A stretch of 64,000 nt of DNA from Psammoneis japonica (lineage: Eukaryota): contig QPGO01000056.1 in NCBI GenBank assembly GCA_008632985.1, positions 124,001 to 188,000 on the forward strand, given 5' to 3'. A program made the translations under genes and the position numbers. A model generated the notes under the pieces. It was not told the DNA's origin, did not search any database, and saw only the letters and a list, made by a program, of their open reading frames with translations. Shown one piece after another: positions 7,431 to 64,000 of the stretch; positions within the stretch are counted from its first letter, which is position 1, and each line of letters opens with the position of its first letter.

Positions 7431-8370
7431 TTGCTGGTCAACTGTGAAACAAATCCAATGGTCAAGTTCACAAAATTGTTTCTTGAGGTGTCATGCACAG
7501 ACTCATGTGCTGTTGCTCGTGGGGTGCAGACCGCAGCACCAAGGCTGCAACAAGTCCACTGGGTGGAGCAAAGACTTTTGGCGGTGATTATTTTGTCAAC
7601 ATGTCAAGCATCACAAAGAAAGAGGTGTCGAAGGGTCTCAAGCACATGCGGGGGAAGAAGGTTTGGGGGGTCAAACTGCACCTTGTGCCAATGTGTCTGA
7701 GAAGATGTCATCAGATTTCCTCTGGGGGTCACAAACTGGAAGGCACCAGATTGCAAAACTGTGACATCTGCAGACACGCTGGTGTGAGATGCAGTTTCAC
7801 TGTTGCAATTGACACCCACTCTTGATGATCTTTCCACACATGCATGGTTTGTTGGGTCTTGCAAAGAGATGTCATTGTTGCCCAGCTCCTCCTCTGGGTC
7901 ACATCGTGTTGAGTCCCGCACAGGAGTTTGACTCAGAATTTCTGCGGGGCTCACACTGTCAGAGATGGAATCTTGGATCATGGATCAGCACTGTGGTTTT
8001 GCACTGTTTCTGCAGATGATCTGGCGTGAGTCTTGTGCAGCTCTGCGTGAACTCTGCGTGGCAAAGTTGAGTCTTTGCAGGGCACCTTGACAGAATCAAT
8101 TCGGCCGAATCAGCTGAGTTCAGCTTGCCTGTCCAAAATCCAAATCGGAGCCAAGACGGCAGGCCCAGCACAAGGAGAGGACACCTTGTGGGTGGCCCAG
8201 CTCTTGGAGAAGTCACCATGCGATGGCAGCGCGCAGCAGAAGGTGGACAGATGGACAAAACAAAACCCGACTTCTGTTTTTAAGGTGCCACCGCGCTTCC
8301 GCCCAGCAACTCCGGCAACAAGCTAACCCACACCCCCAGTGCACATGTGTGCGGCAGGGGCGTGTGGCGA

Positions 8371-11300
8371 TCAGCCTGTGCCGGCATCTCCCTCAGGTGA
8401 TGCCACACTGAAACAACTGGCGACAGCACGAGTGCCCCTCACTGCGAGCCGTTTCGCCTCCTCAATGCTGGATTTAAACATGGGTCTCACCATTTCCAAC
8501 CAATTTCGTAATCTTCGAGTTGAGTGAGTCAAGTGTTCTTCCACCAAGTCAAACAAAGTGGACCTGTCCTTTGCGAGATGTTTGCTTGAACAGGAGTAAA
8601 TTGCCTTGACTTCTGCCTCTGCATCTCTCCGTTGGGCTGACTTCCTCGTCTCGGCGTCGTGACCATGTGCTGCGTCATTGTGTCGATCCCACAGTTCCCA
8701 CCACTGGGACCAAATGAAGCTTCCCATGGCAGCAGACCAATCCAATCTCCAGATGTTCTCCTCCACATCAGAAGGAAGCACTGTGTTCCTGAGGTGCAAA
8801 GCGTGCGCTGCATTCCATTGGATGGCAAATCTGCCGTCAAACAGGTGCCTCCATCCTGTCAGATCTTGGGGGTGGAAAACCAAAATGACACTGTGGTGCA
8901 AGTCCTCCGGAAATGCTGTTTGATCATGAAACCAAGCTTTGAGGGCTTCCAAGAGAAGATCTCGCAAGGGAGGGGGCATGTGGATGTCATCGCATTTCTT
9001 GCGCAAGCCCTGAAGGAAAGTGCGTTGCCATGATTCATTGTGAGGGCATTTTAAAATGTGGTCTCGATCCTCCATTGGGTGTGAGCAATGCACACAAGCG
9101 TCTGGGCGATTTGGGTTGTGCCGATGCACTGTCTTGTTGGTGGGAAGTAAATCTTGAACCAATTTGACCGCACTGACCTTTCGTCTGATGTTCCTTGACA
9201 TGAGTTTGGAGTGAGACGCCCAATCTATAGACCGAAACACTTCATCTGTCCATGAGTGTTTCTCTTTCATGTGCTGCACAAGTGCCGGGCGAGATGCTTC
9301 GCATCGCATCACCTGCTCAAACTTGGACCCCACTGTGGAATTGTTCAATGCCAGGTTGGCAGAACAATGAGGCATTCGCGGCGCGAGTGGGGTGTCACTC
9401 TGGAACTTTCCATGGCATTGTCCGGTGATCCTGTCTGCGCAGACATTCACTTTGGCAGGTGGAGAAAGCGTCTCATGTGGAGCATTAGAATCTTGGTGTC
9501 CTTTGACCCACTGAACAGCGACAGAAGTGTGTGGAGTGTTCTCAATGGATGATGCAGCCATTGTTTCCATTGACAAATAGATTTCATTGACAACGTCCCA
9601 ATCAGTGGATGTGGTGTTCGCTGTGTGACATCTGCGGTGAAAGTCAAGCAGCGCGGAGTCTGAATCCTGAACAGGGGAGCTTGACAGTGGTGTCTCAAAC
9701 TTCGACACAGGCAGATGACAGCCGAGTTGTTGCAGCACAGGTCGCTTCCCAGAGGACAGCTTGCAAAGCAACATTCCATCACCCGAGTTGAGAATCTCAG
9801 AAATGACAGCACTCCGCATGCCTCTGCTCTGTGAGAAGTCGGGCGAAAACCGAACACTGGACCAGCGCAGTCTACCAGTGCCGCACCATCGATGGTGAGA
9901 GTCCAGCCGAAAGTTGCTGCCTGTCTGATGACCGACCCATCGCTGCCCGCTGTTGACTGGTGCAACTGCAAGCAGTGTGCAATCTCGAAGACGGATGCGT
10001 GCATGTGAACGTCAGCGAAGAGGAATGACTCCCATTGCGGCAATGATGACAACCAAGCTTGAAAGTCCGAAGGAACCGGCATGGTGGGAGGCAGGTCAAA
10101 TGAAGATCCAGTGTGTCCAATGCGCCACCTGCCATCCTTGGCAGTGTCTGCCATCGCTGGAGAAGCCCTTGGTGACAGATCGGGTGCAACCTCAAGAGGG
10201 TCGACAGATTGGGCGGAGCCGTGAGACATGGGGAAAACCTGGAACCCCGAGTCAGACTTTGTGCACAAATGGTCTTCGTTGGGTTCACAGCATGCAGGAA
10301 AGGTCACGCGCATCTCCGTTGCTGGAATTGCCCAAGAACCCAGGGGGCCTTGAAGTTCTAAATCGTCATTCTTGCATGACAACCTGCAGGCACGTTGCCA
10401 TTGTTTCCATGCTCGAGCAGATGGGGCTGCCTGCTCGACTTGGTTCAATGTCAAAATGCTGCCAAGAACTGAGGTGTTTCCTTGGAACTTGTGCTTGTCA
10501 AGTGCTCTGCCATCGGGTGAGGTGATGTCCAAAACTGTGAGGACATTGAGGAACAAGTGACAACAGTTGACCCACCTGACCTCTTTGTCAGAGAAAAGTC
10601 CCGAATCAAGTGCCATGTCCATGAGATGTTGATCATTGTCTCGTTGAAGAGGAAGAACTCCAGGTTCGTCCAGGTCAAAGGAAGCATCGATGCAAGAAAG
10701 GAAGGGTCCAAGTGAGCTGAACCATTTTGACTCAGAATGTGGCAGGCGGGAGTGCACATCCTTCAAAAAGCTGACACCTGCACCCAGATGGAACTGAATC
10801 CAAGACACTGCGATCCATGAAAGGGCATGTGGCTGGCCAACACCTCTCCAGTGTGACAAGAGCTGCGTGACTTGGCTGACTCCTTGTTCGACATCCAAGG
10901 ACCTGAAACCACCATCTCCAAGGGAACATGGGCGAAAAGGACATCTTGTTTCTTGTTGCGATTGTGTCCACATTTCGCAAAGATTGCATGCATGGCTTTC
11001 CTCTGGATCTCCAACAGTTCCTTCGGGAGAAAATGGGTGTTTGGAAGGGTGCACGTCATTGCTGCCAGGTGGCACACAAAGCAATGGGTCCATGCTTCAT
11101 GCCGATCTAACGGGCATGATCAAAGAAACAATGCCACGTCATCGCTCTTCTTCTTTGAGGCCTTGCAGTGCGTCCTTTGCGTTCCAGCCAGAGCTTCACA
11201 GTGGCCCAAAGTCTTGTGGGATGAGTGAGGTGACAGTTGTGTGCTGGGCCTGCTGTCGGACTGATCTGTGGAAGAAATGTCAATTGCAATTTCATCATTG

Positions 11301-14300
11301 CATGCACGAAGGCAAGGCTCTCCGTCCTCCGTAAAGTTCCATTCAATGACATGAAAGGAGCACTTCGGGAGTTCCAGCTCGTGTCCTGCTGTGTTCAGCA
11401 GGTCGCCCAAAGTTGATTGTCTTGCTGCAACATTTTGAATGCCAACTCCAAGCCATCAGGCTGGGGGGATGCTGTGAAGTCATTCACCTGCTTGGATGTG
11501 TCATCCACGCATCCTCGGTTGTAGATCTTGAGTGACACGGAGTGATCAGGAGACTCAAAGAAAGCTCCGTGAGCTTTTTGGTCGAAGAGATCAAACAAAC
11601 TGTCACACACCTGGTTCCAGCACAGTGGAGAGTTTCCACTGCCTTGTCCTGTGCCGTAGATGGGAAAATCCAAAGAGTGGGAGCAAGAGGCAGGAGACAA
11701 CCCAATGGCTGTTTTCAGCCAGCACCGAGCTTGTAGGAGGGCAGATGCAGCTGACTTTGTCACTGTTTTGGGCATGCCGTTGCTTCGACTTTGAGCGCTG
11801 TAGAGCAGGAATGTTCCTGTTGCAGCAGGAGGCACAGTCGCCGTCACTGTGGACAGCCATTTTCCAAGACACCCTGCTGATTTCCAACATCAGTTCTTCC
11901 AAACATGCTGGGACGTCAGCATGCAGGAAAGGACGTGCACCGTAAATGCCTGGGTTGCACAATTTGCGATGCTCCATGTTCTGAGCCAACGAACGCCCAT
12001 GGGACACTTGAGATCAGTTGGAAATCTGCCTCGCAGATGTGAATGACGTGCAACCGGTGAATCTTGTTGTTGCCCGCTTCCTTGAATGTCATCACGTTCA
12101 CAGTGTCCCTCCATCGGTCACAGGAATGTCCCCAGCGCAAGGCGCAATTGAGCAAATTAAGCCGGATTTGCATCAAGGTCTGCTGAGCAGCATCCAGGCA
12201 GATGCATGCATCCGTTGGATCTCCGTCCTTTGTCTTGGCGCGTGAATGAGTGTGGGAAGCATGCATGGCCTTCCAGTGACCGAGGTGCAATCCCGACTTG
12301 ATGGACACAGAGGCAGTTTCCTTCCATGACTTCAACTTACCCTCCAAATCATTGGCCGTGAGACAAGAGGAGACGGCAACAGGTGAACGACGTTCGAGGT
12401 GCTGAACAAAATGAGACATGGCCTCATTGAGTTGGGTGGTGTCGCATTCGCCGTCTAAGATGAGATCAGCGAAAATCGTGTCTGCCTTGCACCGAGGTCG
12501 ACGGACAGTGGAGGAACAGCAGGTGGAGCACCGTGTGCTTGACCAAAATGGCGTTGGTTGCGGTGGCGGATGGCTGAGGCCACATCGTCTGGGGCATCAA
12601 TGGCGACCCAGTCCTCACACTCTTTTGGATTCACCACTGGGTTCCGGGGTGCCTGCATGCTGTTGACACCATTGTCGCTGTCCAATTTGCAGCATTCAAT
12701 CTTACGGAAAAGTTTCTTGGTTTCTTTGGCCTTGCGGACATTCCTGATGATCTTCACTTTGCATTTGGACTCCTTGGTGCCTTCCAATTCAAGTGAAGCA
12801 ATCTTCTTGGCCATTTCATTTTCACGGTGTACGACGCTGTCGGCAGCAACTTGTCCACATTTGGCTTGGGCGGCGCGGAGCTCACACAGACAGTCCTCCA
12901 GGGTTTCCGGGATGACAAAGGAACCTTGCAGCTTGTCTCGGATGGTGCGGATGTGGCTGCCTTGATCCAGGCGAGTGTGCATCATTGAGACCACTCGGCT
13001 GAGAACATGCACCCGATGCCGCAGTTGTGACAATTCTGCTGACCACTCTGGTTCTCTGTGGATCCGACACTTCTTCGCAGCAGCCAAAGAGAACTGCAAC
13101 ATGTCTCAATCTAACCTTTCTGCCAGTTTGTGATCGGGGACGGCTTGATCAAGTGGTGCCTGTGAGCGAGCCAACATGTGTCTGCCAGCTGACATTGGTC
13201 CGATGGCGTCCAAGCAGGTTGTCACTTGGGGTTGAGATGAAGACTGGGCATCCCTGCAGCTGGCCTTGGGCAAGTCAACGGCAGGATTCCCAAACAAGGC
13301 CATTGTGTCAAAGTCCACGATATGAGCATGATGGTCTGACATGGTGCGACAACTGAAAGCTTCATGTCCGCCAAACCTGGCAGCAGACAAAGCACCGGGT
13401 GCAGCAAGCACGAAGTCCAGGCGTTTCCGTCCTCGCGTGCATGTGGAAAATTCATTGCTGCCCATCAAATTATGTGACACATCCGAAAGGGTAAAACGCT
13501 GGGCGAGGGAGGCGAGTGTGTCTGTGTCCATCAAGAAATTGGTGTTGAAATCTCCGCAAACGATGACTTCGCGATTGGAGTGACCAAGAACTCTTGCAGG
13601 TGACGAGATAAATCTGCACAAAAGGCCTTCCTGGGGTCGACAGACTGTCTGCCATTTTGTTGTAGAAGGGCTGCTTGTTGTGCATGAGCCGCAGTCTTTC
13701 CAGGGGTCCTTTGATTTTTTTCACAAACTCTGCAGCACGAAATGAACATGACTTGCTTGCCGTTGCATCCGTCAAACATCTGAGTGGACCAACGGCCCAA
13801 TGGGTCTGATTCTTGGCTGCGGCATCGTGCTGAGATGGAGTTCCCCGACAAGAGGGCCGCACCACCAGGTTTGTGCTGAGCAGTGAAGGGGGTTGAGCTG
13901 CATGAGAAGGTGCCGCGTCCATTGGAAATTGCACTGTAGACAGCAGATCGACACACTGACAGAATGTCATGCTGCGCAGTGTCCAGACACACTTCCAAAA
14001 TGCCCACGACGTCTGCTTGGATCTCATTTGCCATTTGACAATGCTCACGGATGTCACCGCCTCTTTTGTCCAATTTACAACCGTCAGCATTGAATGCATG
14101 CAGACGAGTGAGATGGGGCAGCTCAGGACAAAGATCATCACCAACAGGATCATTTGATGTCAGCTGAGAAAAGTCAACACTTCGAGCGCTTGACGCACCA
14201 TTGCTGGTGCCGTTCAAGAGCAATTGCCATTCGTTGACACGGATGCACTGATGGAGTCACTGCTCATGTTGGGCCACACTCCTCCGAGGAGAAGACTGGG

Positions 14301-19149: not shown

Positions 19150-22100
19150 GCTGCAGCCAGTTGAGTCAGCGCATGTCATTTTCTCAGACAACAATTGTTG
19201 CAATTTTAAATTTTGTGTGGTGCGGGTCGTGTGATTTCGACCACTCTTGCTTTGTTCCTAAGCTGGTCTCCACAATTGCATGACAATTGTCTCTGATGCA
19301 CAATCTCCACAGTCTTTCTGATGCAACGATCACAACAGCAAGAAGCGGTGTGGTTCACGAGGCTTCTAACATGTTGACAAAAGATTTTGAATCACCAGAA
19401 CAAGCAGACGAACACCCCATCACCTGCTTCTTCAGAGGTTTGGACAACACTCTGGTGCTGCCATCATGTCACCACACACAGAACTGCTGCTCTGAGCATG
19501 CTGGTCAGCTCTGTGGTGCTTCCTTCTGTCACCTCAATTTGGAGCAGGAGATGGCTGCATTGGCAGCCAGGCGGCCAGGCGGAGAACTCCATTCAAAGCT
19601 TTGCTGCATTTTTTTGTTGGCTCCTGTCTCTCTGTGCTGATCTAAAAACATCCTCTGCTGCAAAGGGTTTGGCAGCTTTGCCAATGCTTGGCCATGAAAA
19701 ACATTCTGCTTTCAATGCAGAAAAACCTGAACAAAACAAACAGGATTTTCCACATGGGGCATCAGGAGCGAACAGCTCATTTGCCCCCCCCCCCCCCCTT
19801 CTGGCTGGAATTGACATAATTTGAGCAGGATTTTAGTTGGTTTGTCACACACAGATGTGTGTGCTCTTGGCTCTGGCTCTGCATGCATTGCTGTGAGATG
19901 CAGCTTTGCTCTCAAGCCACTCAGCTCATGAGAACAACAAGGCTCAACAGCAGTGCCAACATCATGGCACACGTCTTTTGGGCTCCTGCAATGGTCTCTG
20001 CACGGAGACTCATCTGCCATTTAGACAGCAGCAAGGATTTGTCATTTTCTTCCACTTCAGTTTCTGTCAGATTGACAGTCTTGCTCATTTTCATTCATTG
20101 AGCATTTGTCATTGTCGTCAACAAATTTTCAATGACGCACATTGCATTGGTCAAAACAACATGTCAAAACTCCCTCATTGCTGAACACATTTGGATTGGA
20201 TCAGTGTCTTCTGATCCATTCAGAGTCCCTCATCATCAGATGTGTCTGTTCAACCGATGGTCAATCAATCAGGAATGTCCGCATTTTTTCAATGTCTGAG
20301 GTTCTGAATTCCCTGCATTGGCTCCTGCCCAGGTTGACAGACAGGCCAACCCATCACACACACATGCACGCATGCCTGCACCTTGACTGTGGTCTTGCTG
20401 CACATGTGCTGAGTCTGCTGCTCCACATCTGCCCTGGACTGGCTGGTCTTCTGCAGCTCCACAAGGTCTGCAAGGACAACTGTGAGAGGAAGCAGCTGTG
20501 ATTGCGGTCTGTGTTGGTGTTGAAGATGCGCTTTTCTGCACTTTTTTGTTTGTCCTCAGCATCTGATCAGGTCACCCAAATGACACACAAAAAAGAATAA
20601 TTTGGGGGACTTGTTCACCTCCAGTGAGCTTGCTTGCAGTGGTTTTTAGCCCATGCACACCACTTGCAAGTGACCCAAGAAAGTGCAGCCAGCTGCAAGT
20701 TCAGACATGCTGGCACAAGAGCTCTGTGGACTGGATGGGAAGCTCAGCACTCAACTGCAAATGCCGGGGTGGCATGACCCAGCGGCTTCTGATTCAGGAC
20801 ACACTTCAAGGTTTCAAGTCAAATTCAGTTCAAGTCAAGCTTGGCTTTTAGCTCCAGACTCTCTGCAGCTTCCTCAGTTGCACCGTGGTGCTCACCAGGC
20901 AGGCAACAACAAATTGACAACCTTGAGCACATTTTGGGCACTGTCCCAAACCAGGCTGAAGACAGCCCATTGTGCTCTGCCCTTGCCATTGATTCAATGG
21001 ACTTGTGCAAGGACCTCTTCACGTTTGCTCCTCAGGGCCAAATTGACTCTCCAGTTTATGATGACAGAACCAGCCAACTGCCTTTGCCACGTGGACACAA
21101 ATGCCTCCCAGTGGCATTGATCAGTTTCTGCACTGCAAAAGCATGCCAGGGCACTGACATTGGCAACAGCCCTTTCTTGTTCACGCTTGATGAATTTCAT
21201 GAATGTCATCTTGGTTCCGATTGTGATGGCATCCATCTCTTTTGGCATGGATGTCTGCTCCCATGTTTGGCTTGCTCCCTCCCAAACCATGTGACCCAGT
21301 GCGCAACTTCTGACAAGGTGTGAAATGTGATCCACTCACCTTTGAGACTCTCAAGTCTGACAAGCAGTGGCACATGTGGCACACCTCTGTCATTGTGCAG
21401 ACCCACTCCCAGGATGTTGACTGCACTCTTGATTTGATGCACAAGCCCTCTACACCCAAAGACAAGGTGCTGTTCACTGAACAATGGAAGCACATGTTTG
21501 CCATCTTTGAATGCATCTCACAAAATGACAAAGGCAGGGCACTTGTTCATGAACATGTGGACTCCTCTGATGCCCAAGCCATGTGATGCAAACTCTCTGA
21601 CTGAGTGTGCTCTTGCATCAACTCGTGCATCACTTGAGTCATCAACCCTTCTCAAGCACCTCACCACCACTCGCCTTGGTGATCACACTTGGAAGGGATC
21701 CACCCAGACCTTTGTGCTCCACTGGCAAGACCAGCTTCACAAGTGTGAGACCCTGATTCAGTCCTTGACCACTTCTCTGCTGGCCAGCAATGTGTCATGC
21801 CAGAGAATGCAGTCCACAATGCTGTTGAAGAACTCCGTTCCATCGAGAATCAAGCTGTGACCAATGTCGCACACAGAATGGCGCAAGCCTTTCCTGTGAA
21901 CAATGTTGCAGCCTGCTGCTTTCTGCAGCAGCACAGCATGACAGCACTTTTGCAACCAAGACAGCCTCCTGCACCCCATGCAGTGCTGTCTGCACCCATG
22001 ACCTGGCCCCTGGCAACCCTGATGATGACATCAACATTCTTCAGTCTTGTGCCTCATCCAAAATTTGTGGCCCCAGTCTCTCTGGAAAACAGCAGCATTG

Positions 22101-25100
22101 CATTCTGCTGGGTCACCAGCGCATCTGGGACACCCTGCCTCAGTCTTGGCTTGCTCATCCCTCCTGCCAGCAACTCCCGTGACTTGGCAGCTGTCAATGT
22201 TCACAACCTCTGCCTGGGGAGTGATGGCAATGTCAACTTGTCTCCCAACTCTCATTGCCTTGTGTTGGCTCCTGGATGACCAACAATGGATGCTGCTGAT
22301 GCACAGCTGATGATGACCCATCCTGGTGCACCACCTTAAAACACAAGCCTCTGCCACCCTGCGACATCCAACACCTGTTCAACCCAACAAATCATCTGGC
22401 AAGAAATCCACTGCACCCCCACCTGAAACTGCTGACAATGTCAAGATTGATGGCCACACGCATCATTCACAACAACCACAATGTTGTCTGCTCCACCTCC
22501 ACCCACAACTCAACATGCTCTGGTGCTCTGGTGGATTGCGGTGCCAATGGCAGAGTTGCTGGTGATGATGTTTGTGTTGTCATTTGTGCTGACCACCAAG
22601 TCAATGTGCAAGGCATTGACAATCATCAGCTGGTTGACATCCCCATTGTTGCTGCTGGTGGTGTCATTCCCACACAGCGTGGACCTGTCATCATCATCCT
22701 TCACCAGTGCACCTGCACTGGAAAGGGCAAGACCATGCACTCTTGCAGCCAGCTTGAGTGGTGAAAGCATGACATCAATGACCTGTCACTCAAGGTTCCC
22801 AACAGCCTGCACTGCATTGCCACCATTGACAGCTGCATCATCCCCATTGACATCAAAGAAGGTGGTCTGCCACACACTGGCATGTGTCTGCACACCAACA
22901 ACAAGTGGGACACTGTGCCCCATGTTGTTCTCACTGGCAATGACACCAACTGGGATCCATCTGTGCTTGACCACCAGTTGAACAATGATGACAACTGGCA
23001 CGATGCTGTGTCTGACCTTCAGGACGATCCCACCACCAACCTCTTTGACAAGTTTGGCAACTGTTGCCATTGCCGTGTCATGCACAGTGCAATGTTGGCT
23101 GACTCCATTCTCAATGTTCACATCCGGCTGACATGTCATGAGCATGATGTTGCCCCCAAGGATCCCAACTGCTGGTCCCTTTGCCTCCACTTTGGCTTCC
23201 TCCCACAAGACATGGTTCGTTGCATCTTTGACTGCATGACGCAGTGCACCTGCATGTTTGCTGCTGCATGTCTGAAGAAGGCATGCAAGTCAACCAATCC
23301 AGCTTTCAATGTTCACTGGTGCAATGAACTCATCATTGTCACTGATGCCGCATTCTCCAACACCCCCACCATTGACTCTGGGTGCATCAGGGTGCAGCTT
23401 TTTGTTGGCACACAGAATCTCTTGTCACTGATGTGCACAGCAACAAGACAGACAAGGAATTTGTCAACATGCTCAAAGACAACATCCACAACCATGGTGC
23501 TCCCTCCAAGAAGCTCATTGGCAATTGTGCTCAAGTTGACATTAGCAACAGGGTCCTTGGCATTCTCCATGCCCTCTTTGTGTCTGGTTGGCAGAGTGAA
23601 CCCCACCAACAGCACCAGAACTTTGCCAAGCAGTGCCACCAAACTGCAAAAAACATGGCCAACACCATCATGGATTGCTTCGGCTCCACGGCCCACACCT
23701 GGTTGCTCACCCTGATGTTTGTGTGCTTCTTGCTCAACCACACAGCATCTGCCAAGCTTTGCTGGTGCACTCCCACCAAAGTGCTGAGTGGCTCCACTCC
23801 TGACATCAGCCACCTCCTCCATTTTCAGTGGTGGGAACCCGTGTGCTGTCACCTGGATGATTCCAACTGGCTGTCCAAATCCCGTGAATTACGTGGTTGC
23901 TTTGTTGGCATTGCCAAACATGCAGGTCACCAAATGACATTCAAGATTCTTTCTGATGACACTCAGAAGATTCTCTGCCAGTCCAACGTGCATTCCACAC
24001 CATGTCACAAGTGCACTGCTCTCTGGAAGTTCCATCACATTCTCTCACACAAAGGGCCATTGAGACCTCCTGACTCTTCTTGGAAAGGCTCAAGCTGCAA
24101 TGTCATGCTTGAATGGGAGAGCAGGGAGATCACATCCAAACCTCTTGCCATCATTGCCAAGGATGACACCATCACTTGTGCCATCTGCACATGCAAGAAT
24201 GGTCTCCTCAACACTGAAGGACAGAAATGCTTCTGTGCCAAAGAGTGGCACAGTTGCCCCTGGCTGGGGGGCTTTGGTGGGTTGTGCCAAACTGGGATGA
24301 GGAGGCTGGTTTTTTGTGCCACAGAGGTTGTGCAGGGCAACAGCAGAGCAGATGAGCTGTTGATGGGTGAAGCAGTCAATTGCACTAAGGTGATTGGCAG
24401 AGAATGGCAGGGTGCAAATCCCAGCAAGGTTGGGGTGGTCAGCAATCACAGAGGGCTGCGTTGTGTCTGTGGTTGTGGCGTGCCTCAGCAAGTGGTGTGG
24501 GTTGTTGACAGAAGAGGCAGGCCAGCCAGGAGAAGGATGAGCAAGGGGGTTGATGACAGCTGTGTCAAGAATGGCAAGGCAGGCATGGTGGGTGGGAGAG
24601 TGAGCCATGCACCAGCGCGCCAGCACGGCACTCTCAAGAAGGGCAAATGAGGAGGGAGCGCAGGTTGGCGGGCTCATGGTGCACAGTGGAGGAGTCACAG
24701 CAAATGCCAGAGAGGGGGGGCAACAGTCTGAAGGACAGCAAAGAGGGCATTGCAGATGTTCTTGTTGTTGGAGGGCTTGTGCTGCTGTGGGGAGAGGAGA
24801 GCAAGAGCACAGCCCCTGGTGGCATGTTGCTTGGCTGGCTTGCCTTGCACAGGAAGGACTCTGTGATGTGGTTGGTCAGTGGTGGGGAACAATCAGAAGG
24901 GAGAGCTTGTGTCACAGCATAAAGCAAAATGGATCAAAGGAGAGCCACTGCCCTGTGTGACAGAGGCAGCCAGAGAGCACTCAGGGCAGGAGGCTTGCAC
25001 AGAACAAAGAGGGGGGCGGGCGGGGGTGCTGGTGTCGGCGGGGCTTGAGCGACCTGAGGGGGGCCATTTTGGCACAGAGTGTCAAGTTGGTGTTGGATGT

Positions 25101-25270
25101 GAGCATGACAGAGCCGGTGGGAGACATTTAAGACAGGACATGACAAAAGAGTGCAGCAAAGGGGGGCACACCATCCAGTGTCCAACACAAATCAAATTCA
25201 AAAAATCCCCGCGCATCCGACGGACAGGCAGAGCAGATCGTGGAGGTTGTTTGGTCCATCCGCCACCCGT
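19150..25270. repeat. TpA-depleted repeat island 2
   Basis: About 17 TA dinucleotides in 6 kb by manual count. CpG is also strongly depleted. Confidence 0.9.
20700..24240 (+). mobile_element. Degenerate Ty1/copia (CoDi-like) LTR retrotransposon: gag, protease, integrase; RT/RNase H missing
   Basis: gag fragment QNDKGRALV..H..DAQ. Protease ALVDCGANG. Integrase TDKEFVNMLKDNI...WQSEPHQQHQN. Downstream motif NVMLEWESREITSKPL..IAKDD.ITCA. LTRs not identified. Confidence 0.85.
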
Positions 25271-25386
25271 CACTGTTATGTGGAGCTACGACCACGCTCA
25301 GTATGTTTCTACACAAACACACAACATGTTCCGCAACCGCGTGTGTGTGGCAACACAATAACGCAGTCTTTCTCGTTGCATCGACC

Positions 25387-26669: not shown

Positions 26670-29600
26670 CTGTGCTGAGTGCGCTTGGTCCATTCATTCC
26701 ATCATGGCGTTCCAGCCAAAACAAAGTGACTCTTCAAATTGGCATCAACAATGAGTTCCACCGTGGCTGAAAACTCTCAAAGAACCTTTTCATGGCCCGA
26801 TGGCGTGCAGAGAGCTCAACCAAGACACCAACGACATGTGTTCTTGTCGATCGGATGCCACGACTGTGAAATTTTCCAACGTTCAGTCAAAAACAGCAAG
26901 TCATTTCGGTTTCTTGGAACTTGTCGCGTGACAGCTCCATGCATCAATGTTGCTTTTGCGGAAAGGCATTGAATTGTGCATTTTTGGGGACAAAGGAAAA
27001 AGGAAAATGTTCTTCCATCTGCACCATCATGGCCTGTCGCAGCTCTCTCCCATGCCCCTTGCCGCATGTGATGCAGTGGGGGGTCAAGTTTCCATTTGTT
27101 TTCACTTGCTACTTTGTTTTTGTTGGATGCTGTGTTTTGGTGACACCATCCCCTTTCAAATGCTCAGTGTGTTGCATCTTCCCTTTTCTTTGATTCATCA
27201 ACCCAGGACATCCGCCAAGTGCCCTGACATGTGAGAAGGGGCAGCACCTCACTGACAGTTGCAAACTGTCTGCTGACTCTCATGTTTGCTTTTTTCCATT
27301 GCTTTTTCCATTTTCAAACAAAAAAGACAAGCAACTTGGCCGGCTCCTTGACGAGCTTGTAGATCCCATCAACCATGACTGTCTGTTGGCCTCCCTTCAT
27401 GGCATCCAAAGCATTGTGGACAACCATCACTGTGCTGGTCTCTTTGGCCTCCATGTGACTTTCACAGGAAACAATGCTCCCCTTGATGCCATTGAATGCC
27501 TCTTTCTGCTCCCTGCTGTTCAATGGAGGTGGGTGATGTTGCTCATCATGAAGCACATTGAGAAACTTTGAGCTCCATCTCGTGCAGATGTGTCAACCAG
27601 GGTGCAGGCCAGACATGTCATCCCCCAGTGGTGGCAGCAATGAAAACACCCATGGAAGGGCCAGAGGGGATGTGTCTGACACTGCTGTTGTTGATGATGG
27701 CACCAGCATGGCTTCAACTGAGGCTTCATCTCAATCTTGATGGAGATGCAGTGTGATGCACCAGAGTGCAATTCCCAGAGTGAGTGCTCAAATCATTCCT
27801 TCCAAGCATTTGGCGGGCTGCAGAAGCTCCATTGACTGCAACTGTCAGAACACCAAGACTCCAATTTGAAAATGAGTTGCCAATCTAGAACAAAGTTTGA
27901 GCAACTCTGAAGTGCCTGCACCCAAAATTCTGCATCTGTGATTTTCTCAAACCCAGTTGTTGTTGCACTCTCTTTCTCTCTTGAAGATTTGTCAGTTTGC
28001 AACACAGTGCAAACAAAACTGAGCATTGCACTTGCTCTGGCACACTGTGCAAGAGCCAACAGAGTCCCAAACATGGCTCACTGTGGCCGCTGCATCTCTG
28101 GAGACCTTTCTTCTGCTGTTGTCTGCTTTGAGTTGTCGCAGTGAGTGAAATGGCTTTGACATCCCTTCATGGGAAAGCGCACTGCCTGCTGAAAGTCCAG
28201 GCAGGGATGACACCATGAATGGCTCTTGCAAGTGACAAGATGGTGCCAGAGATCCATCAGATGAAGAAGCCAGGGGATTGGCAAGTGGGGGCTGCAGCAG
28301 TCCATTTGGAGGGAGACAGCATCCCATCACATGGCAGAATCAACCCAACAGAATTTAATCACTTGTGGATGCTTTGAGTGCCAAAGAATCCTGAATCTGA
28401 ATGAGCCCAACTTGGGATTTTCTTTTTAGGGCAGCAGTTGGAAGTTGGGGCCACACACTTTGTGTTGTCATTGCACAACTTCAGACAACATCTCTCACAT
28501 TCATTTCTTCCTTGGGGGCTTCCTTTGGGTTTTCAACAAAATCTTCCTCCTCCCTGCCAAAATCCACATTTGCAAAACAACAACAATTGAACATGTGCTC
28601 TTCATTTTTCACAACAGCCAAGTCTTGTTTGGAGCAAACCAGGGCTCCTTGTTCTTTCAAGTGTGACAGCAATGGTGGGGTGTCTCTTTTGCCAAACCAG
28701 ACTGAACTTTTTTCTCCATGGATGAGAGCAGTGCAAAGAATTCAAGCTCCATCCTGCCACAGCAGAATGGATCAAAGAGTTTGTGCATGAAAGCAATCTG
28801 AGCTTCACTTTTGGACCCTGCCACACTCAGTGTGTGGCAACCACATGGCCAACATGGGTGTGGTCTGCCAGTTCCTTGATGAGAAGGCACACCTGGAGCA
28901 ATCGCCAAAGCTCAGGCAGGCCACAGCAATGCAGTTTAAGCTGATTTGCATTCTTGAGTGTGGATCTGCCAGGTTGTCCTTTGAGACTACATTGTTGTGT
29001 TTGATGAAGCAATGAAGCCAAGGCCGCCATTGTGTCATTTTGTGGAGTTCTTTCAGCAGTGAAAAAAGCAACAAGGTGCTGACTCAACAGTTGATTCAGG
29101 GCAACTGCTGAATGCAAGCTCTGCCTGATGTCTTCCTGCTGTGCAGTGGGCTGGGTGGCAGAGCTGGAGAGAGAGCTCACACCACATGCAGATTGAGAAA
29201 AGATGCACTCCACCAGCTCCAGGTGGGACCTCCTCACACTGCTGCATGGTGGTGTGAGAGTTTTTTGGTCATGCACCACCACATGTTGTGTGTGAGCAAC
29301 ATTTCCCATGGCTTTTCATTTTTTCTTTGTTTGTGAGAGCAAAAATGGGCTGGACATTTTCTTTGACATCTGAAGAAAGCATCTCAGCCAACCAGAAATG
29401 GCGCGCATCAAGTGTGGAGGAGCCCACACATTTGCCAATCTGTTGGCAATCATCTGCGATGTGTTTGTGGCCTGACAATTTTGCTGCGGAGCTCACACAC
29501 AGAGTTCTGCTGGCCAAGCATCACATGCAACCCCACCCAGCAGGGGAGCTGGAGTGTGCCAAGACCTGGATTGTGCAATGACTCAGCCAAGCCAGGATCA

Positions 29601-29960
29601 AGACCAATGTCGCCAGCAAACGAGAGTGCGCCATCATCATTGGTGAGACAACAACAAGCACCACAAAATTGTCAATTTTAGCATTGTCAATGACACACAG
29701 TGCTTTGTTGCAATGAGGCACAAAGATGACTTGAGAGACCGCAAAGAACAGCCAAGTTGGTGCAGCGCACCTCTGACTGCAAATCTTCTCAGTTGCGGCC
29801 ACTGACACGAGCTGGGAGATGACAAAATGTGGGGGGTCTGGTGTCTGGTTGAAGAAGTGGTGTGAGCCACATGATGCATGGGAGGTTCAGAATGCACATG
29901 CACAGCAGCTGACAAAGCAGGACAGCAACAGACAACGAATCCCCTCGTGGGTCCTGCGCA
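26670..29960. repeat. TpA-depleted repeat island 3 (unclassified degenerate element)
   Basis: TA loss throughout. 28460-28720 is homologous to 34530-34800. Confidence 0.8.
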
Positions 29961-30154
29961 CAAAAACACTGTAGTTGCGGTGGACGATGGGCCCCACAGC
30001 ACAACGGTGCGTTTGTTTCGCCGGCGATTGAGCGCGACAGAAAAAACTCATAACCTTCCACGTCCGACCGCCGTCCGATCTTCCACGGCTTTCCGCGCTG
30101 GCCGCTGGCCGCTGGTCACGGTAAGAAACAAAGCGAGCAGGAGGTGCAACACAG

Positions 30155-33100
30155 ATGAACGCCATGGCTGCGGTGGAAATTGAAACCAGTCCCTCCGATA
30201 AGAGGTTATACAAGTCCCTCGTGTTAAAGAATGGTCTTGAATGCCTCTTAATCCATGACGAGTCCTCAGAAAAGGCCAGTGCGGCGATGGACGTGAGGGT
30301 CGGCCACCTGTTGGATCCGATTCCTGGACTGGCTCACTTTCTGGAGCACATGCTATTCCTAGGTACTGAAAAATACCCTGATGAAAACGCTTATAATGTG
30401 TATTTGAGTCAACACGGTGGCGCTTCCAATGCGTTCACCGATATGGAATCTACAAATTACTTTTTCGATGTTGCTGCTGATAAATTTGAAGGAGCGCTCG
30501 ATCGATTCGCTCAGTTCTTCATCTCTCCTCTTTTCACCGAGTCGGCGACCGAAAGGGAAATTCAAGCGGTCGATTCAGAACACGCCAAGAACTTACAGAG
30601 TGATATGTGGAGATCCTTCCAGCTGACAAAGACGCTCTGTCGTGAAGAGCACCCTTTTTCAAAGTTCGGGTCCGGCAATATCGAATCACTCAAAGTTGAC
30701 GGCATTCGTGATGCGTTGATTGAGTTTCACGCAAAACACTACTCCGCCAATCTCATGAAACTGGTGGTTTTGGGGAGTGATTCATTAGAAACACTGGGGG
30801 AGTGGGTGACTTTGTATTTTTCTGAGATTCCGAATCAAGATCTTCCCGTGCCTCAGTTTCCTGGCGAGCCATTCACGAGGAACGAATTGGGCAAGATTGT
30901 CAAGTTGATACCAGTAAACGAGCAACGAACAGTTGAGATGCACTTTCCACTCCGGGAGATTGATTCACTCTACAAATCAAAGCCCACTCGGTACCTTAGT
31001 CATCTCCTTGGTCACGAAAGCGAGGGCTCTGTTCTGGCCCTGTTGAAGCGGCTTGGTTGGGCCAATGAATTATCTGCAGGCGAGTCTCGTTCCTGCAGCG
31101 ACTGGGCTTCCTTCTCTGTTAACATTGATCTAACGGAAGAGGGCTTTGAAAGGTATGAGGATGTGGTTTATGTCGTATTCTCTTACCTTCAAATGTTGAA
31201 AAAAGTTGGTCCTCAGCAATGGATACACGAGGAAACTGCCACTGTCGCGGACTGTTCGTTTCGGTTCTTGTCCAAGCGCAATCCAATGGATTACACTTCA
31301 TCTTTGGCCGGTCGCATGCAAATATATCCAATAGAGCATGTCCTGTCTGGTCCTTTTCGCTTCTACCAGTACGAGCCTCAACTGGTGACAGATATTTTGG
31401 AAAAGATGATTCCATCGAACATGTTGCTAATGGTGATCAGCAAGAAGTATGAAGGAAAAACTACGGAGCAAGAGAAGTGGTATGGTACTGACTATTCCAT
31501 CCAAGACATCAACCCTGACCTTTTGAATAGATGGACCTTACTAGATTCGCCTCAAGACCAAGAGGGTGCGGATTGGATGATGGAGGATGGACGATGCTTG
31601 CTTCAGTTGCCAGAAAGAAACGACATGATCGCGACAGACTTCAGCATTGTGCACCTTCCTGAGGCAGACTTTCCCAAAGACGAGCCCCGCCTACTGTTGG
31701 ACGAATCCAATTGTCGACTTTGGTACAAGCCTGATAACGTTTTCGACATGCCAAAAGTAAACATTATGTCCATTTTGAGAACAAGATCCGTGTACGACTC
31801 GCCAGAAGCTTCCGTAATGACGTCAATGTGGGTTCAGTTGCTTCAAGAACACGCTAATGAGTTCACCTATTTGGCTAGTATGGCAGGATTGCACTGCGAG
31901 TTTTCCGATGCTAAGACCGGTGTGGAAATTCATATTTCAGGGTACAATCACAAAGCGTCGGTCCTGGTCGACCGAATCGTCAAATGCATCATGGAGCTTC
32001 CGGAAACAATATCCCCTGAATTGTTCAATCGCATCAAAGATAAGGTCCAGAAAGAATACGAGAATTTCATGGTAGCTCAGCCTTACCAGCATGCTTTCTA
32101 CGTTGCGGAACTTGTTCTGGAACAAGACAAATGGACTGTGGAGGAAAGACTCACGGCGTTGTTCAGTATCACGCGTGATAGGATGGAAGAGTTCTCCCGT
32201 CGTATTTTGTCTCGTTTTCATTTAGAGACATTGGTGCATGGGAATGTTTCTCCAACGCTTGCTAAGGATCTGGCACTCGCTTTGTTGCATGGGCTGAAGC
32301 CAAACGTTGCTTTTGCTTCGTGTTTGCCACAGCGACGGGTGGTTCAACTGGAGGCTTCTTGTGACCACGTTCACAGGTTCAAGGAATACAATGAAGATAA
32401 CACCAATAGCTGTTTGGAGGTTGTGTATCAGATGGGACCAATGGACCTGGCTACGAATGCGGCATTGTCTTTTCTTCACCATCTCCTGCGGGAACCCGGT
32501 ATGTAACTAGCTTCTGGTGCACTTGCTTAAAGCGTCTCATTCTCATTATCTTGTGGTTCATCCACTCCGTTCCTCCATCAAAGCCTTCAACGAACTTCGA
32601 ACCGAAGAGCAGTTGGGCTACATTGTGCACACTGCAGTCAAAACTAGCGGGGATAATATCAAGGGATTGCTCATTTTGATACAGAGTGACTCATTCGATC
32701 CAATTCATTTGGATGATCGGGTGGAAGCGTTTTTGGATCGCTTCCGATCCAAGCTCGTCAACATGAGCCCAGACGAGTTCCAGTCGAACATTGATGCAGT
32801 TGTGAAAAGTTTTCTCGAAAAGGTGAGTTTCATGACAGTATCAACGAGGAAGATCTTGTTTACGTTCGACCTCCTTACAATAGATTTTCATTCCTTAATC
32901 TATTTCAACAGAATAAAAACCTTGGTGAAGAAAGTACCAAATATTGGAATGTCGTCACGAACCGCTCGTATATTTTCAAGAAGTACCAACTCATTGGGGA
33001 GCACGTCGGCAAACTCTCCAAGGATATAATGCTTCGTTTTTTCGACAGATTCGTTGGACGTGGCGGGGTATGTCGTCAGAAGCTCTCAGTTCAAGTTTTT

Positions 33101-33699: not shown

Positions 33700-35320
33700 T
33701 GCAATGGCAGCACAGGCCCACATCTGCATGCTGACAGTGAGACGCGCCTCTCCAGAGTCGAAAAGGTTGAAAGTTGGGCTGTGCCGCATTCGGATTGGAA
33801 GAACGAGAAAGAGCTGTGTGCTGAGTTGTCACGTCATGTGTGCTGAGACGACGACGTCGCACGGTGTTTTACTCAACAGAATGAGGAATGCACACACACA
33901 AATGGCACAGCGCTGTCACTGCATCTGAATTGCATCATCTGTCCATGCCATGCTGAGAAAAAGACAGAGTCTGTCCCACAAAGGACTGACAATCCTGTCC
34001 AACTCCATTCTCAATCTCTCATCACATGTCTTTACACTGTGGGCATGGGCGTTTGGCTCATTTTGGGTGCATCAATGGCAGACTGAATGGGTGATTGAGC
34101 ATCGCTGTGGCATGGGCGGCTTCCATGCGGCTTGACATTTCTGTGAATTCAACAACATCTCCAAACAAAATCAGCACTGTCACAAAAAGGTCTGAAATGT
34201 GATGGGGGTCTTTTTGAAGGGGTGTTGCAACACCTCTTCTGCAAGAGATTCATCAGAAGCTCCTCAGCGGCGCACTTCTGGACAGCCATCCTGCTGCTTC
34301 CTTTTCTTTAGCAACATCTTGGAGAAAGGCAACCAAAGGAGTCAAATGCTTTTCTGACAGCTTCTTGATCCCAACAATGCAGGGGAGCTCTGTCGAGCTT
34401 TTTGAAGCACACTGAAATGAGGCAGGTGCGCTCCTCAGCATTTCAGATGTTGATGGGGAGACAGTGGCTGCTGCTTGACAATGAACAATGCACAGTCAAA
34501 GGCTGGAGGATGCCAAAGCTGTGCATTCATGCTGTCATCATGCAACTTCAGACAATGCCTGCCTTGCTCATTTCTTTCTCAGGAGGTTCCTTTTGGGTTT
34601 GACAAACATCTTCATCCTCCCTGCCAAAATCCACTTTGCCAAACAGCAGCTGTCAATGTGCCCGCTGAGTGTTGCACAGTGGTGGCCAAGTCTGGTTTGG
34701 CACAAACTGGCTTTTTTTCTTTCACATGTGGCAGCAACAGTTGTTGTGTGACTTTGGCCCAACCAGACTCAAGTTTTCCTCCACAGGATGAGACAAAGAA
34801 CTCCCCCACAGCCATCCACTGTGAAGTTCATTCTCCAGCTGGATGCCAGGACATTGTTGCACACAAGAGAGATGGGTGCAGCGCGGCATACAAAGGACAA
34901 TGTTGGATGACTGGGGGGCAAGGATCTTGCTCATTTCTCACCAGGGCAACAAAACCAGTGTGACGCTGGAGAGAGTTTCTTTTTGTGGGCAGTGTGAAGA
35001 GAGTTGTCTGACACCAGGTGGGGCATCTGCTGTCATCAAGTGAGTCTCCCAACTCTGCAGCATGCCATTTCAGCCAGATGGGCACACTTCATTGAGGGCA
35101 CCAAGCCAGTTTGGCAAAGATCAGCCCACCTCAAATCCCTTGCGCTCGTCACATCTGAGTCTTGCTGGCTGTGATCATCATGTTGAAGCTCCTGCAAGCT
35201 TCAGAGTCATCATCATTCTTCTTTCCCAGCTTTCTGATTGGACGCCGTCATCCTTTTGTGACTCGTCATTTGTTGCTCTTTGTTGTGGTTTTCCACTCTT
35301 CTTCTTCTTCTTCTGGTTTG
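33700..35320. repeat. TpA-depleted repeat island 4 (same family as part of island 3)
   Basis: TA loss, and shared sequence such as caacttcagacaa and ctccctgccaaaatccac with 28460-28720. Confidence 0.8.
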
Positions 35321-35488
35321 TAAAGCAGTGCATCATCTTTGATCTTTGCATCTTCGTACGTCGCACGGACTCCGCATGCTGCCTAAAGCGCAAGCGCGCG
35401 ATTTTCGCGCAGAGGCTTCGCGGTGCGGATTTTCGTTCTCTTTTTCTCACAACACTTTTTGTCGACGACAACAACAACAGGCAACATC

Positions 35489-37152
35489 ATGACGACGACA
35501 ATTTCAAGGCTTCGACTGGTGGCGATAAACGATGTATACGAGCTCAAGAACTTACCAAAACTCCAGACCTTTCTTTCAAAACTAAAGCCAGCTCCGAGTG
35601 CCGTCTTGCTTGCGGGCGATTGCCTCTCTCCGTCGACCTTATCTTCGATTGACGGTGGCCGTGGCATGGTGGATTCGTTGCGAGCGAGCGGTGTTTCTCA
35701 CATGTGTTTTGGAAACCACGAAGCCGATCTACCACTGTCGACATTGAAGGATCGTGTGTCGGAACTCTCTAAATCCATAACGCTTGTCAATACAAACATG
35801 CGCAATCCTCCTCATCCAAGCGCGTTGTGGCTCACGTCACCGTTGACTCCACCGTATTCCATCGTTACGAGTCCTTGTGAAACGATAAAAGTAGCCTTTT
35901 TGGGTTTGATTAGTGACGAGGAAAGCACCTTTCGAGATGGAACATTCAAGGGAGTTCCCGTCGACAATGTGTTGTCGAGCTTTTCGAATTCTTTCAAAGA
36001 TCTCGTTCCAAATCTCGCTCATTATGTCATTCCCATTACGCACCAGTCCATGGCTCGAGACCGCGATTTGGCACGTCACATGCTCGAGGTGGAACAGATA
36101 GAACGTGGACTTGTTATTGGTGGACACGAGCACGATCCGTTTGACGAAAGCCTGGAGCATCCGAGCAAGCCAGATCGTTTTGTACGAATACTGAAATCGG
36201 GTTGTAATGCCAGAAACGCCTCGCTTGTCGACCTTGATTTTGATGTGTCGGTGGATCCACCGCAACTAGTGGAACTTTCAGCATCGCTTGTAGACTTGAC
36301 AAAGTACGAGGACTCGGTTGTGGTGAAAAAGATTGTAGAAAAGCACATGGCTGTCATTAAGAATATGGAAAACGAAATCATTATCGACGACACAATGGTA
36401 CCGCCGGGTGTCGTTTTGAGCTCGGAAGATCGAGATACAACCAAACAACAGTCGGTTCCTTTATTTGTCAAGCCATTAAGGAAGAATTGGAGGTGGATGT
36501 TGCAATTATCAACGGTGCGTCCATTGCCGGTGACACAATCTACGTGGACAACAAATTGAGTTATGCCCAATTGAAAAATGAACTTCCGTTTCCCACCAAG
36601 ATTGTCGTTGTTTCCATGACACGAGGAGACTTGCAGAATGCCATTTATCACTCCCGGACAGACACAGAAGAGCAGTACAAGGATTTACCAGCAGATGAAG
36701 TCCCCCGAAAAGGGTATTTGCAGACAGACTTTGGCTGGGACGATGTGATTGGCGATCAAAACGATGAACTTCTTGTTGCTCTACCACGCAACCTTATGCG
36801 TGGATTTTGCAACAACAAACCCCTCATGGAGGTGGGTGAACGACTCGGTGACAAATTCCCAAGCGAGGATGACTACATTCCTGCTGTGGATTTGGTGACA
36901 CGGTATTGCTGCAAAAACAAATGGGCAAGCATTGTAGAAGACAATTTTTCCTTTGATGAGTTTGACCTGAACCACGACGGCAATCTCGACAAGGATGAGG
37001 TCAAAACGGTATTGAAGAGAATTCTAGGGCATGAGCCACCCGATTTTGTTGTGGAAGACATGATCAAGAGTATAGATGAAGATGAAAACGGAGTGGTCGA
37101 TCGGGGAGAGCTGGCTCATGTGCTTGCCAAGATGGAGAGAGACTCGTGGTGA
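35489..37152 (+). CDS. 5'-nucleotidase/metallophosphoesterase with C-terminal EF-hand pair; 1-nt frameshift near 36428
   Basis: Motifs INDVY, AGD.LSPS, GNHE, THQ and GGHEH. EF-hand loops DLNHDGNLDKDE and DEDENGVVDRGE. The alternate frame gives RSRYNQTTVGSFIC. Confidence 0.85.
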
Positions 37153-38947: not shown

Positions 38948-39130
38948 NNNNNNNNNNNNNNNNNNNNNNNNNNNNNNNNNNNNNNNNNNNNNNNNNNNNN
39001 NNNNNNNNNNNNNNNNNNNNNNNNNNNNNNNNNNNNNNNNNNNNNNNNNNNNNNNNNNNNNNNNNNNNNNNNNNNNNNNNNNNNNNNNNNNNNNNNNNNN
39101 NNNNNNNNNNNNNNNNNNNNNNNNNNNNNN
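38948..39130. other. Assembly gap (N run)
   Basis: Run of n, preceded by a (TAG)n tract. Confidence 1.
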
Positions 39131-59700: not shown

Positions 59701-59760
59701 ATTTCAGTGTTGAAAAAGAAAGCCGCATCTCTGTTGTTGCACGCAAGATGCACCTTGGAA
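56743..59760 (+). pseudogene. BCS1-like AAA ATPase gene fragment split by a ~2.5-kb insertion
   Basis: KDKLNL...HPEVFDLALIRPGHIDKKLMLGCM at 56820-56920 and TPAQVDQLTAEQDNVEDMI at 59645-59705. Confidence 0.65.
59464..59537. repeat. Two adjacent palindromes
   Basis: Perfect 32-bp palindrome aattttgcggcccacatgtgggccgcaaaatt at 59506-59537, with a near-identical copy at 59464-59497. Confidence 0.9.
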
Positions 59761-63773: not shown

Positions 63774-64000
63774 TTGCTTTTTGTTTTGACAGAAGGCAAG
63801 TTTTGATTGCTCTTGCTGGTGATTGCCAGTCTAGCTGCATGGCACAATGATTTCCCAACTGTGGATGCATCTGGTGCTCACATGAATGTCTGCCTCCATG
63901 TCCTTTGCAGTCTTGACATTGGCAGGCACGGCAAGTCCTCCTGCCCCTTTTCTCTTTGTCAGGGCCATGCCTTCCAGGACAATGATTTTGCAAGTTTGGT

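Follow-up and report, generated by a model that had tools for sequence, protein, structure and literature searches.

A TpA-specific, flank-graded transition process in the decayed transposon islands of the diatom Psammoneis japonica

What removed almost every TA dinucleotide from 6 kb of the Psammoneis japonica genome? The stretch in question, positions 19150-25270, lies in a 64-kb window (contig QPGO01000056.1 of assembly GCA_008632985.1, forward strand, positions 124,001 to 188,000), by which we mean the whole length of DNA that was analyzed and whose numbering is used throughout. It is a dead copia-type retrotransposon fragment with adjoining repeat debris, and the window contains five more repeat islands, all six having sharp edges. 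A dinucleotide scan gives these six blocks observed/expected (o/e) ratios of 0.01-0.12 for TA, 0.07-0.7 for CG and 1.4-2.5 for TG and CA, and it gives the remainder of the window 0.3-0.75 for TA with CG near 1. The island considered here, the second from the left, has sharp edges, no assigned strand and ratios of 0.02-0.16 (TA), 0.09-0.35 (CG) and 1.65-2.5 (TG/CA). The islands are decayed diatom transposons, and they have undergone a TpA-specific, strand-symmetric and flank-graded transition process that appears confined to transposon blocks, is near saturation and is separable from CpG decay.

The few TAs that remain in 19200-25200 have a strongly biased context. An earlier note on this DNA had counted about 17 of them, about 11 being TTAA, CTAA or TTAG and none being RTAY (R, purine; Y, pyrimidine). 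Our count confirms this closely: 18 TAs remain where base composition predicts ~360, and they comprise 12 YTAR sites, six mixed sites and no RTAY site. The YTAR survivors are TTAA (19207, 22337 and 25129), CTAA (19259, 19367, 19643 and 24386) and TTAG (19834, 20022, 20647, 20849 and 23543). The mixed survivors, found at 19817, 20598, 21057, 21451, 23890 and 24920, are three copies of ATAA and one each of TTAT, CTAC and TTAC. Given baseline frequencies of 18.6% YTAR and 32% RTAY, the chance of finding at least 12 YTAR sites among 18 is 1e-5, and the chance of finding no RTAY site is 1e-3. The trend that the note saw at the left edge of the first island is also present, since the five TAs at 4988-5135 read TTAA, TTAG, TTAG, CTAA and TTAA.

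When the six islands are pooled, their 108 surviving TAs divide into 53 YTAR, 50 mixed and 5 RTAY sites. The trend is present in each island, with YTAR shares, from left to right, of 22/48, 12/18, 5/11, 2/7, 6/11 and 6/13. Outside of the islands, the window contains 241 YTAR, 687 mixed and 453 RTAY sites (n = 1381), a distribution that differs greatly from that of the island survivors (chi-square p = 2e-17). A second baseline comes from metagenomic copia-like loci, for which 79 loci were counted from the best 80 of 332 confirmed matches; these are biased toward intact copies, which makes them apt as an ancestral baseline, and they carry 4569 YTAR, 12150 mixed and 7870 RTAY sites (n = 24589, or 18.6, 49.4 and 32.0%). 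The two baselines concur, both differ from the survivors, and the survivor bias is confirmed. The residual contexts, which the earlier note had allowed might turn out to follow the background, depart from it, and the leftover TAs are enriched in YTAR, especially TAAA/TTTA.

The strength of depletion follows the number of strands on which a site reads TAY. Relative to the baselines, the density of RTAY falls to 0.010-0.013, that of YTAY and RTAR to 0.06-0.08, and that of YTAR to 0.17-0.25. The reasoning of the earlier note, that YTAR is the context with TAY on neither strand, is sound, and its statement that TAY is hit stands. Its statement that YTAR is spared does not, because ~75-83% of YTAR sites have also been lost and the preference is graded. 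A two-strand exponential model assigns a per-strand dose of ~2.2-2.3 to TAY versus 0.7-0.9 to TAR, which is a 2.6- to 3.1-fold preference, and for mixed sites it predicts 2.9-3.2 versus 2.5-2.8 observed. In a logistic survival model in which both strands of every site can be hit, the purine/pyrimidine distinction improves greatly on the null (p ~6e-18), and distinguishing all four bases improves further on purine/pyrimidine (p ~1e-5). Per-strand survival in this model, relative to A at the +1 position 3' of the target A, is 0.47-0.57 for G, 0.26-0.35 for C and 0.12-0.13 for T, and the +1 base of survivors is A in 48% of cases and T in 8%. Overall, a pyrimidine 3' of the A raises the likelihood of change on each strand ~3-5 times.

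The next base also has an influence. TAAA is enriched 4.4-fold and TAGA 2.25-fold among survivors, and a purine is favored at +2 after TAC, with TACR accounting for 33 of the 42 TAC survivors versus 46% expected (p = 3e-5). Since sites are read from both strands, this +2 effect is indistinguishable from a -2 effect on the opposite strand.

Conserved codons reveal what the lost TAs became. We took codons at which intact relatives agree (at least 60% of at least four copia references, or at least two of three references for a long interspersed element (LINE)-like retrotransposon in the first island) and recorded the corresponding codon in the window. Among 54 reference Tyr codons (TAY), 20 are now TGY, 15 are CAY, two are kept as TAY and 17 are something else. 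The same A-to-G change is rare after other bases, being seen at one of 84 Asp codons (GAY to GGY), none of 41 Asn codons (AAY to AGY), none of 40 His codons (CAY to CGY) and 4/65 AAR codons, and T to C occurs at only one of 63 Phe codons (TTY). The contrast between Tyr (20/54) and the pooled GAY, AAY and CAY controls (1/165) is highly significant (Fisher p = 5e-13), and A-to-G change is limited to A with T on its 5' side. The two strands are changed in similar numbers, as the 20:15 ratio of TGY to CAY at these Tyr codons indicates, and TG and CA counts are balanced in each of the six islands. Because conserved Tyr and Arg codons of intact relatives have been changed to TGY and CAY, the pattern reflects mutation and not ancestral composition, and the dominant change outside of CpG is A:T to G:C at TpA. 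In 2900 paralogous contigs, compared as summary tables of differences, transitions make up 1897 of the 2485 places that differ from the window, and the examples include places where the paralogue has TA or CG and the window has TG or CA.

The direction in which Tyr codons changed depends on the preceding base. A TAY rule predicts that YTAY, which has one TAY strand, becomes YTGY, and that RTAY may give either product. After a pyrimidine, 14 Tyr codons became Cys, two became His and two were kept; after a purine, six became Cys and 13 became His (Fisher p = 0.0016). The classification by neighbor is robust because transitions leave the purine/pyrimidine class unchanged. The test also tells a rule based on a pyrimidine at +1 from one based on the -2 base: a preference for a pyrimidine at -2 would leave RTAY as the best-surviving class, contrary to what is seen, and a preference for a purine at -2 predicts His, not Cys, in YTAY. 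Tetramer bookkeeping agrees with the codon test. Compared with either baseline, the islands have lost 9.3-13.0 YTAY per kb and gained 11.7-14.4 YTGY and 4.1-6.5 YCAY per kb, and, with lost YCGY assumed to split evenly, ~0.8 of the lost YTAY went to YTGY. The 3' neighbor of the target A thus matters, with a graded preference at +1 of T > C > G > A for being changed, and the strand-wise 5'-TA-Y preference proposed in the earlier note is supported by both the directional test and the tetramers.

The islands have also lost CpG, and this is a separate, slower process, the decay of methylated CpG. That decay accounts for the CG loss, but not for the 20- to 100-fold loss of TA. CG depends on its flanks in a different way from TA, as RCGY is not its most depleted class. 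CpG loss does vary with the 5' base, with island/background ratios of 0.34 for TCG, 0.37 for ACG, 0.44 for CCG and 0.60 for GCG. The two elements with usable references also differ. In the copia fragment of the second island, all seven conserved Arg CGN codons have become CAY or TGY, while the LINE-like element retains 12 of 18 conserved CGN Arg codons and has lost ~95% of its Tyr TAs. The loss of TA is thus more than CpG decay at a different speed, since it is nearly complete in this otherwise young element with few frameshifts and most CGN kept, and TA erasure is earlier than, or independent of, CpG decay there. Among the 79 metagenome loci, CG o/e is below 0.4 in 14 and TA o/e is below 0.45 in none. 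The low-CG loci (L069, L021, L034, L059, L025, L053, L077 and others) have a TG/CA excess and normal TA, with an o/e of 0.45 or more. Copia-like elements in environmental diatom-like DNA commonly show methyl-CpG decay, and none of the 79 loci, a sample weighted toward intact copies, shows TA erasure.

Two further observations concern CG in the islands. In the last 200 bp inside 11 internal island edges, CG stands at 4.5-4.7 per 100 bp, the same level as outside, and TA at 0.45-0.73 per 100 bp is still depleted; the zone of TA erasure thus seems to be slightly wider than the zone of CG depletion. At 22596-22763 and 23691-23914, the copia fragment has ~80-85% matches among small contigs of X3, a further sequencing run on the same sample. 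They differ mainly in having C or G where the window has T or A (24 of 46 places), which fits a CpG-retaining relative in the sample.

The island letters are present in accurate reads. An assembly of public run X1 (mean word depth ~61) by other software gave contigs that differ from the window at 0-8 places over island pieces of 0.5-2.3 kb. No library is recorded for this run, which may derive from the very sample of the window, and the agreement speaks only to the letters and is not independent biology. Runs X2 and X3 contain next to none of the words. The sequence also appears to be old and real, because conserved residues have been destroyed and frameshifts are present.

The element at the center of the second island is a decayed Ty1/copia-type gag-protease-integrase fragment of the diatom CoDi-like kind, which occupies 21254-24233 on the plus strand. 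It was delimited by tblastn searches with the intact polyproteins P0121-P0125 and 150 representatives, together with the codon comparison above. The fragment is frameshifted, its reverse transcriptase part is missing and no Tyr codon remains in it. Identity to P0121-P0125 is 31-62% per aligned segment, and the family has 3034 representatives at E <= 0.001. A repeat search detected no long terminal repeats or other terminal repeats in the island, and none of its six open reading frames (ORFs) matches Pfam. The flanking parts, 19150-21250 and 24250-25270, are debris as TA-poor as the copia fragment itself; the right-hand part, which has no assigned strand, has the opposite GC skew (+0.25) and contains three TAs. 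The debris on the left includes a C homopolymer of ~14 bases (19787-19800) and a segment (19686-19790) that is 82% identical to 5415-5526 in the first island. A scan of viral contigs for copia relatives yielded 33 pattern matches, none of which was confirmed.

The first island extends from 4980/5060 to 16520 and, like the others, has no assigned strand. It contains the LINE-like non-long-terminal-repeat retrotransposon ORF at 8347-14181 on the minus strand, which encodes endonuclease, reverse transcriptase and zf-RVT domains, matches P0276-P0278 and is nearly full-length (~1900 codons) with few frameshifts. ORF fragments at 6318-7164 (minus strand) match the piggyBac-type domain DDE_Tnp_1_7 below threshold (E = 0.013; 15.3 bits versus a cut-off of 22.4). 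A PDB sequence search and the Atlas gave no support for a piggyBac element at 5060-7200, which remains a lead only. If a piggyBac-type element is indeed TA-erased, then a DNA transposon has been affected too, and editing at the stage of reverse transcription would become less likely. Among 20 ORFs of the other island parts, none reaches the Pfam score cut-off, and three have weak matches, to zf-RVT, Exo_endo_phos and DUF5635.

The remaining islands carry no element with usable protein references. The third (26670-30190) is a repeat of no assigned type that has a 265-bp segment in common with the fourth (33700-35520). The fifth (56120-60480) has inverted segments in common with the sixth (61310-64000), which extends past the window end and includes a 181-bp tandem repeat at 61818-62261 (2.5 copies, 86% matches). 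A purine-rich microsatellite of the GAGGAGA type follows at 62517-62588. Self-BLAST of the window finds nine weak pairs in all, with a common segment in each of the island pairs 1-2, 3-4 and 5-6; the islands are not close copies of one another, so no within-window ancestor can be constructed. Paralogous contigs are many for most island bins, but 5300-7300 and 24643-25299 have no more than single-copy depth (at least 80% likeness).

The window is nuclear diatom DNA, and intact host genes sit between the islands, namely a gene with a LamG domain and genes for an ArfGAP, an M16 peptidase and a metallophosphatase; ORFs elsewhere outside the islands are likewise ordinary host genes. An intact ORF for malonyl-CoA:ACP transacylase (37397-38308, minus strand) has its top matches among diatom proteins, at 85-92% identity, and an assembly gap of 183 N lies between host genes at 38948-39130. 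Host genes within ~100 bp of island edges are unaffected. The 500-bp windows that are free of N are bimodal in TA o/e, with 56 below 0.2, one at 0.2-0.3 and 68 at 0.3 or above (n = 125). TAs per 100 bp rise abruptly from 0.45 to 6.1 at the 11 internal edges and show no gradient outside, although this step is partly a matter of construction, as the edges were placed by TA positions.

How could such a pattern arise? That a real, TpA-specific and flank-dependent mutation process produced it is very likely in our judgment. The idea that leftover TAs carry no motif preference, and that they were instead regenerated or reflect ancestral composition, artefact or selection against UpA, is hardly credible. 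Some survivors must be new mutations, and the numbers are modest (108). Trinucleotides of the forms TGN and CAN are near even at +1 in the islands, however (24-32 per kb each), and TAs regenerated from TG and CA would be ~25% per +1 base, not 48% A and 8% T; regeneration adds noise at most. The directional Tyr test does not depend on survivors at all, the loss of conserved Tyr and Arg is not what adaptive codon choice would produce, and the survivors differ from two concordant baselines. Neither GC-biased gene conversion nor selection against UpA accounts for so strict a TA specificity or for the destruction of conserved residues, and a basecalling artefact is rejected because contigs from accurate reads carry the island letters.

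On balance, we favor an enzyme-driven, repeat-directed process that acts in situ, a reading that we consider probable as a whole. An enzyme is suggested by a rate above that of methyl-CpG decay together with an absolute requirement at the -1 base, as in nucleic-acid deaminases and methyltransferases. Repeated action in situ on chromosomal DNA is suggested because both strands are hit and ~99% of the best sites are lost. A trans-acting base-modifying enzyme would be aimed at repeats in chromosomal DNA. In the simplest chemistry, the adenine of 5'-TA would be deaminated to hypoxanthine and read as G at the next replication, and repeated action to near saturation would amount to a genome defense resembling fungal repeat-induced point mutation (RIP). 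Elements would be killed through replacement of all Tyr and many Ile, Leu and Val codons without the creation of stops. That the chemistry is adenine deamination is possible, though we would put it short of probable. The fuller proposal is more tentative still: diatoms, or at least this lineage, might possess a RIP-like defense of a new chemical kind, in which a DNA adenine deaminase, aimed at repeats and favoring T-A-pyrimidine, turns the A of 5'-TA into hypoxanthine on both strands and so erases TpA, and hence every Tyr codon, from mobile elements. TACG ranks with the best survivors, and the two Tyr codons that were kept both read YTACG. One way to read this is that a methylated CpG, with its C next to the target A, may get in the way of the enzyme; the process would then act on DNA that is methylated beforehand.

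A repeat-directed process could instead act on thymine, for example if the T of 5'-R-T-A were oxidized or otherwise modified, mispaired with G and was read as C. The pattern is exactly symmetric, since an A changed in TAY is a T changed in RTA on the other strand, and the counts fit equally well. We nevertheless think thymine chemistry unlikely, because T-to-C change needs a mispairing intermediate and not a simple deamination, which seems to make near-saturation harder to reach. Doubtful to a somewhat greater degree is the specific suggestion of the earlier note, an adenosine deaminase of the TadA/ADAT family, here retargeted to DNA. In its favor, the strict T on the 5' side of the target A mirrors U33-A34 and the UACG core of the TadA consensus (available passages of PMC11472039), and ADAT2/3 proteins are described as acting on DNA, with C-to-U change in trypanosomes and both C-to-U and A-to-I change in amphioxus (PMC10354150, in the part available). 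The analogy breaks down at the level of the motif, however. Sites with Y at -2 are the least affected, T outranks C at +1 and TACG is relatively protected. The amphioxus enzyme prefers GAA for A, as far as the available part of PMC10354150 goes, and stramenopile-restricted deaminases, such as the deaminase-SAM-Tudor proteins in the excerpted portion of PMC3239186, are at least as good candidates.

Editing of retroelement RNA or cDNA before integration, by ADAR-like or APOBEC-like restriction, would mean that copies arrived already mutated. Island edges match element-sized blocks with host genes within ~100 bp unchanged, and both identified elements are retrotransposons. We judge this origin quite improbable all the same. 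Editing of RNA or minus-strand cDNA is one-sided, but the strands here are changed about equally (TGY 20 : CAY 15, with TG and CA balanced). The ~99% loss of RTAY exceeds what single rounds of editing are known to achieve, the absence of change in AA contexts (0/41) is unlike ADAR preferences, and the 181-bp tandem array and non-coding debris are equally TA-poor. Less plausible again is a repair by-product, in which deaminated methyl-CpG recruits error-prone patch synthesis with polymerase-eta-like errors at WA motifs (W, A or T) that alter nearby TA. TA loss does always accompany methylation-type CpG decay in the same islands, and A-to-G change at WA is a polymerase-eta signature. WA includes AA, yet A to G is seen at none of 41 AAY and 4/65 AAR codons versus 20/54 TAY codons. 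Moreover, the LINE-like element has lost nearly all of its TA but little of its CpG, and the 14 metagenome loci with strong CpG decay have no TA loss.

Several points weigh against an in situ, adenine-directed enzyme. All of the evidence comes from one 64-kb window, in which six islands retain 108 TAs and protein references are usable for two elements. A-directed and T-directed chemistry leave the same pattern, and copies that were edited before they integrated would also be expected to have sharp edges. The directional test uses a relaxed consensus (at least 60-66% of references); at fully conserved positions, the Cys:His ratios are 5:1 after pyrimidine and 1:4 after purine, and this strict subset gives only p = 0.08. 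The repeat status of 5300-7300 and 24643-25299 is inferred and not shown, given their single-copy depth. The same bias that recommends the metagenome loci as an ancestral baseline means that they say little about the frequency of TA-poor copies. We know of no natural eukaryotic enzyme with a TA-specific adenine deaminase activity on double-stranded chromosomal DNA. A scan of 64 distinct window ORFs found no deaminase domain, but a trans-acting gene need not be in the window.

The process resembles several known systems and differs from each. Like RIP, which depends on RID or DIM-2 and on a sexual stage, it makes transitions in what seems to be repeat and transposon DNA with sharp borders, near saturation, on both strands and with a dinucleotide preference, and it inactivates permanently. 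Unlike RIP, which in the accounts available in part makes TpA from CpA by C-to-T change and lowers GC, it removes TpA by A:T to G:C change, leaving TA at an o/e of 0.02-0.12 and TG/CA at 1.5-2.5, raises GC slightly and creates no stops. Cytosine deamination is excluded as the chemistry of an island enzyme. Diatoms carry RID-related DNMT4 genes whose function is not known, according to the available text of PMC9998398. Methyl-CpG decay in transposons is similar in that CG is lost to TG and CA in the same islands and in 14 of 79 other copia loci, but CpG decay leaves TpA, depends differently on flanks and is uncoupled in extent from TA loss.

Retroelement editing by APOBEC and ADAR proteins is likewise enzyme-driven and produces context-biased clusters of transitions that kill retroelements (PMC4866542, in the passages at hand). 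These enzymes edit one strand (G to A, or A to G in the sense strand), stay far from saturation and have no strict TA rule; the islands are symmetric and ~95-99% complete. An ADAR-type change of A to G in the sense strand alone is not observed here (TGY 20 : CAY 15, with AA contexts untouched), and neither is an APOBEC-type plus-strand change of G to A in GG or GA, as the dominant non-CpG change is A:T to G:C at TpA. TadA and ADAT2-ADAT3 share with the islands a target A that follows U or T (A to G at 20/54 TAY versus 1/84 GAY, 0/41 AAY and 0/40 CAY), and recoding of Tyr UAC to UIC is a known TadA outcome in the same partial source that gives its consensus as YUACG(AA) (PMC11472039). This consensus is unmatched by the islands at -2, at +2 and in the T-over-C order at +1, and the known substrates of these enzymes are single-stranded loops, not chromosomal repeats. 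Iyer et al. list stramenopile-restricted deaminases that include the deaminase-SAM-Tudor proteins (PMC3239186, as excerpted).

A full-text literature search, outside of which subscription journals and supplements lay, found no description, for diatoms or any other organism, of repeats hypermutated from TpA to TpG/CpA. Every match that dealt with dinucleotide-biased mutation of repeats concerned fungal RIP, whose direction is the reverse, and the diatom CoDi paper (PMC2806351) does not contain 'hypermut', 'dinucleotide' or 'point mutation'. There is a real chance that the islands reflect a new enzymatic class. The flank rule, with its strict 5' T, its +1 order of T > C > G > A and the protection given both by TACG and by A at +2, provides a fingerprint for comparison with candidate enzymes, and NTAN survival is a simple index for scanning other genomes. 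Diatom repeat annotation may be too low, since TA-poor islands escape homology searches for transposons. A natural A-to-G enzyme directed at double-stranded DNA or chromatin with TA specificity would, if it exists, also interest base-editing work.

Repeat-targeted hypermutation is established only for fungal RIP, by C-to-T change, and for retroelement editing of the APOBEC type. Erasure of TpA by A:T to G:C change would add to these a third means of inactivating transposons, with a chemistry of its own, and it would operate in a major marine algal group. If the tentative proposal of a repeat-directed DNA adenine deaminase is true, then this diatom lineage would possess the first natural chromosomal A-to-G editor directed at transposons.

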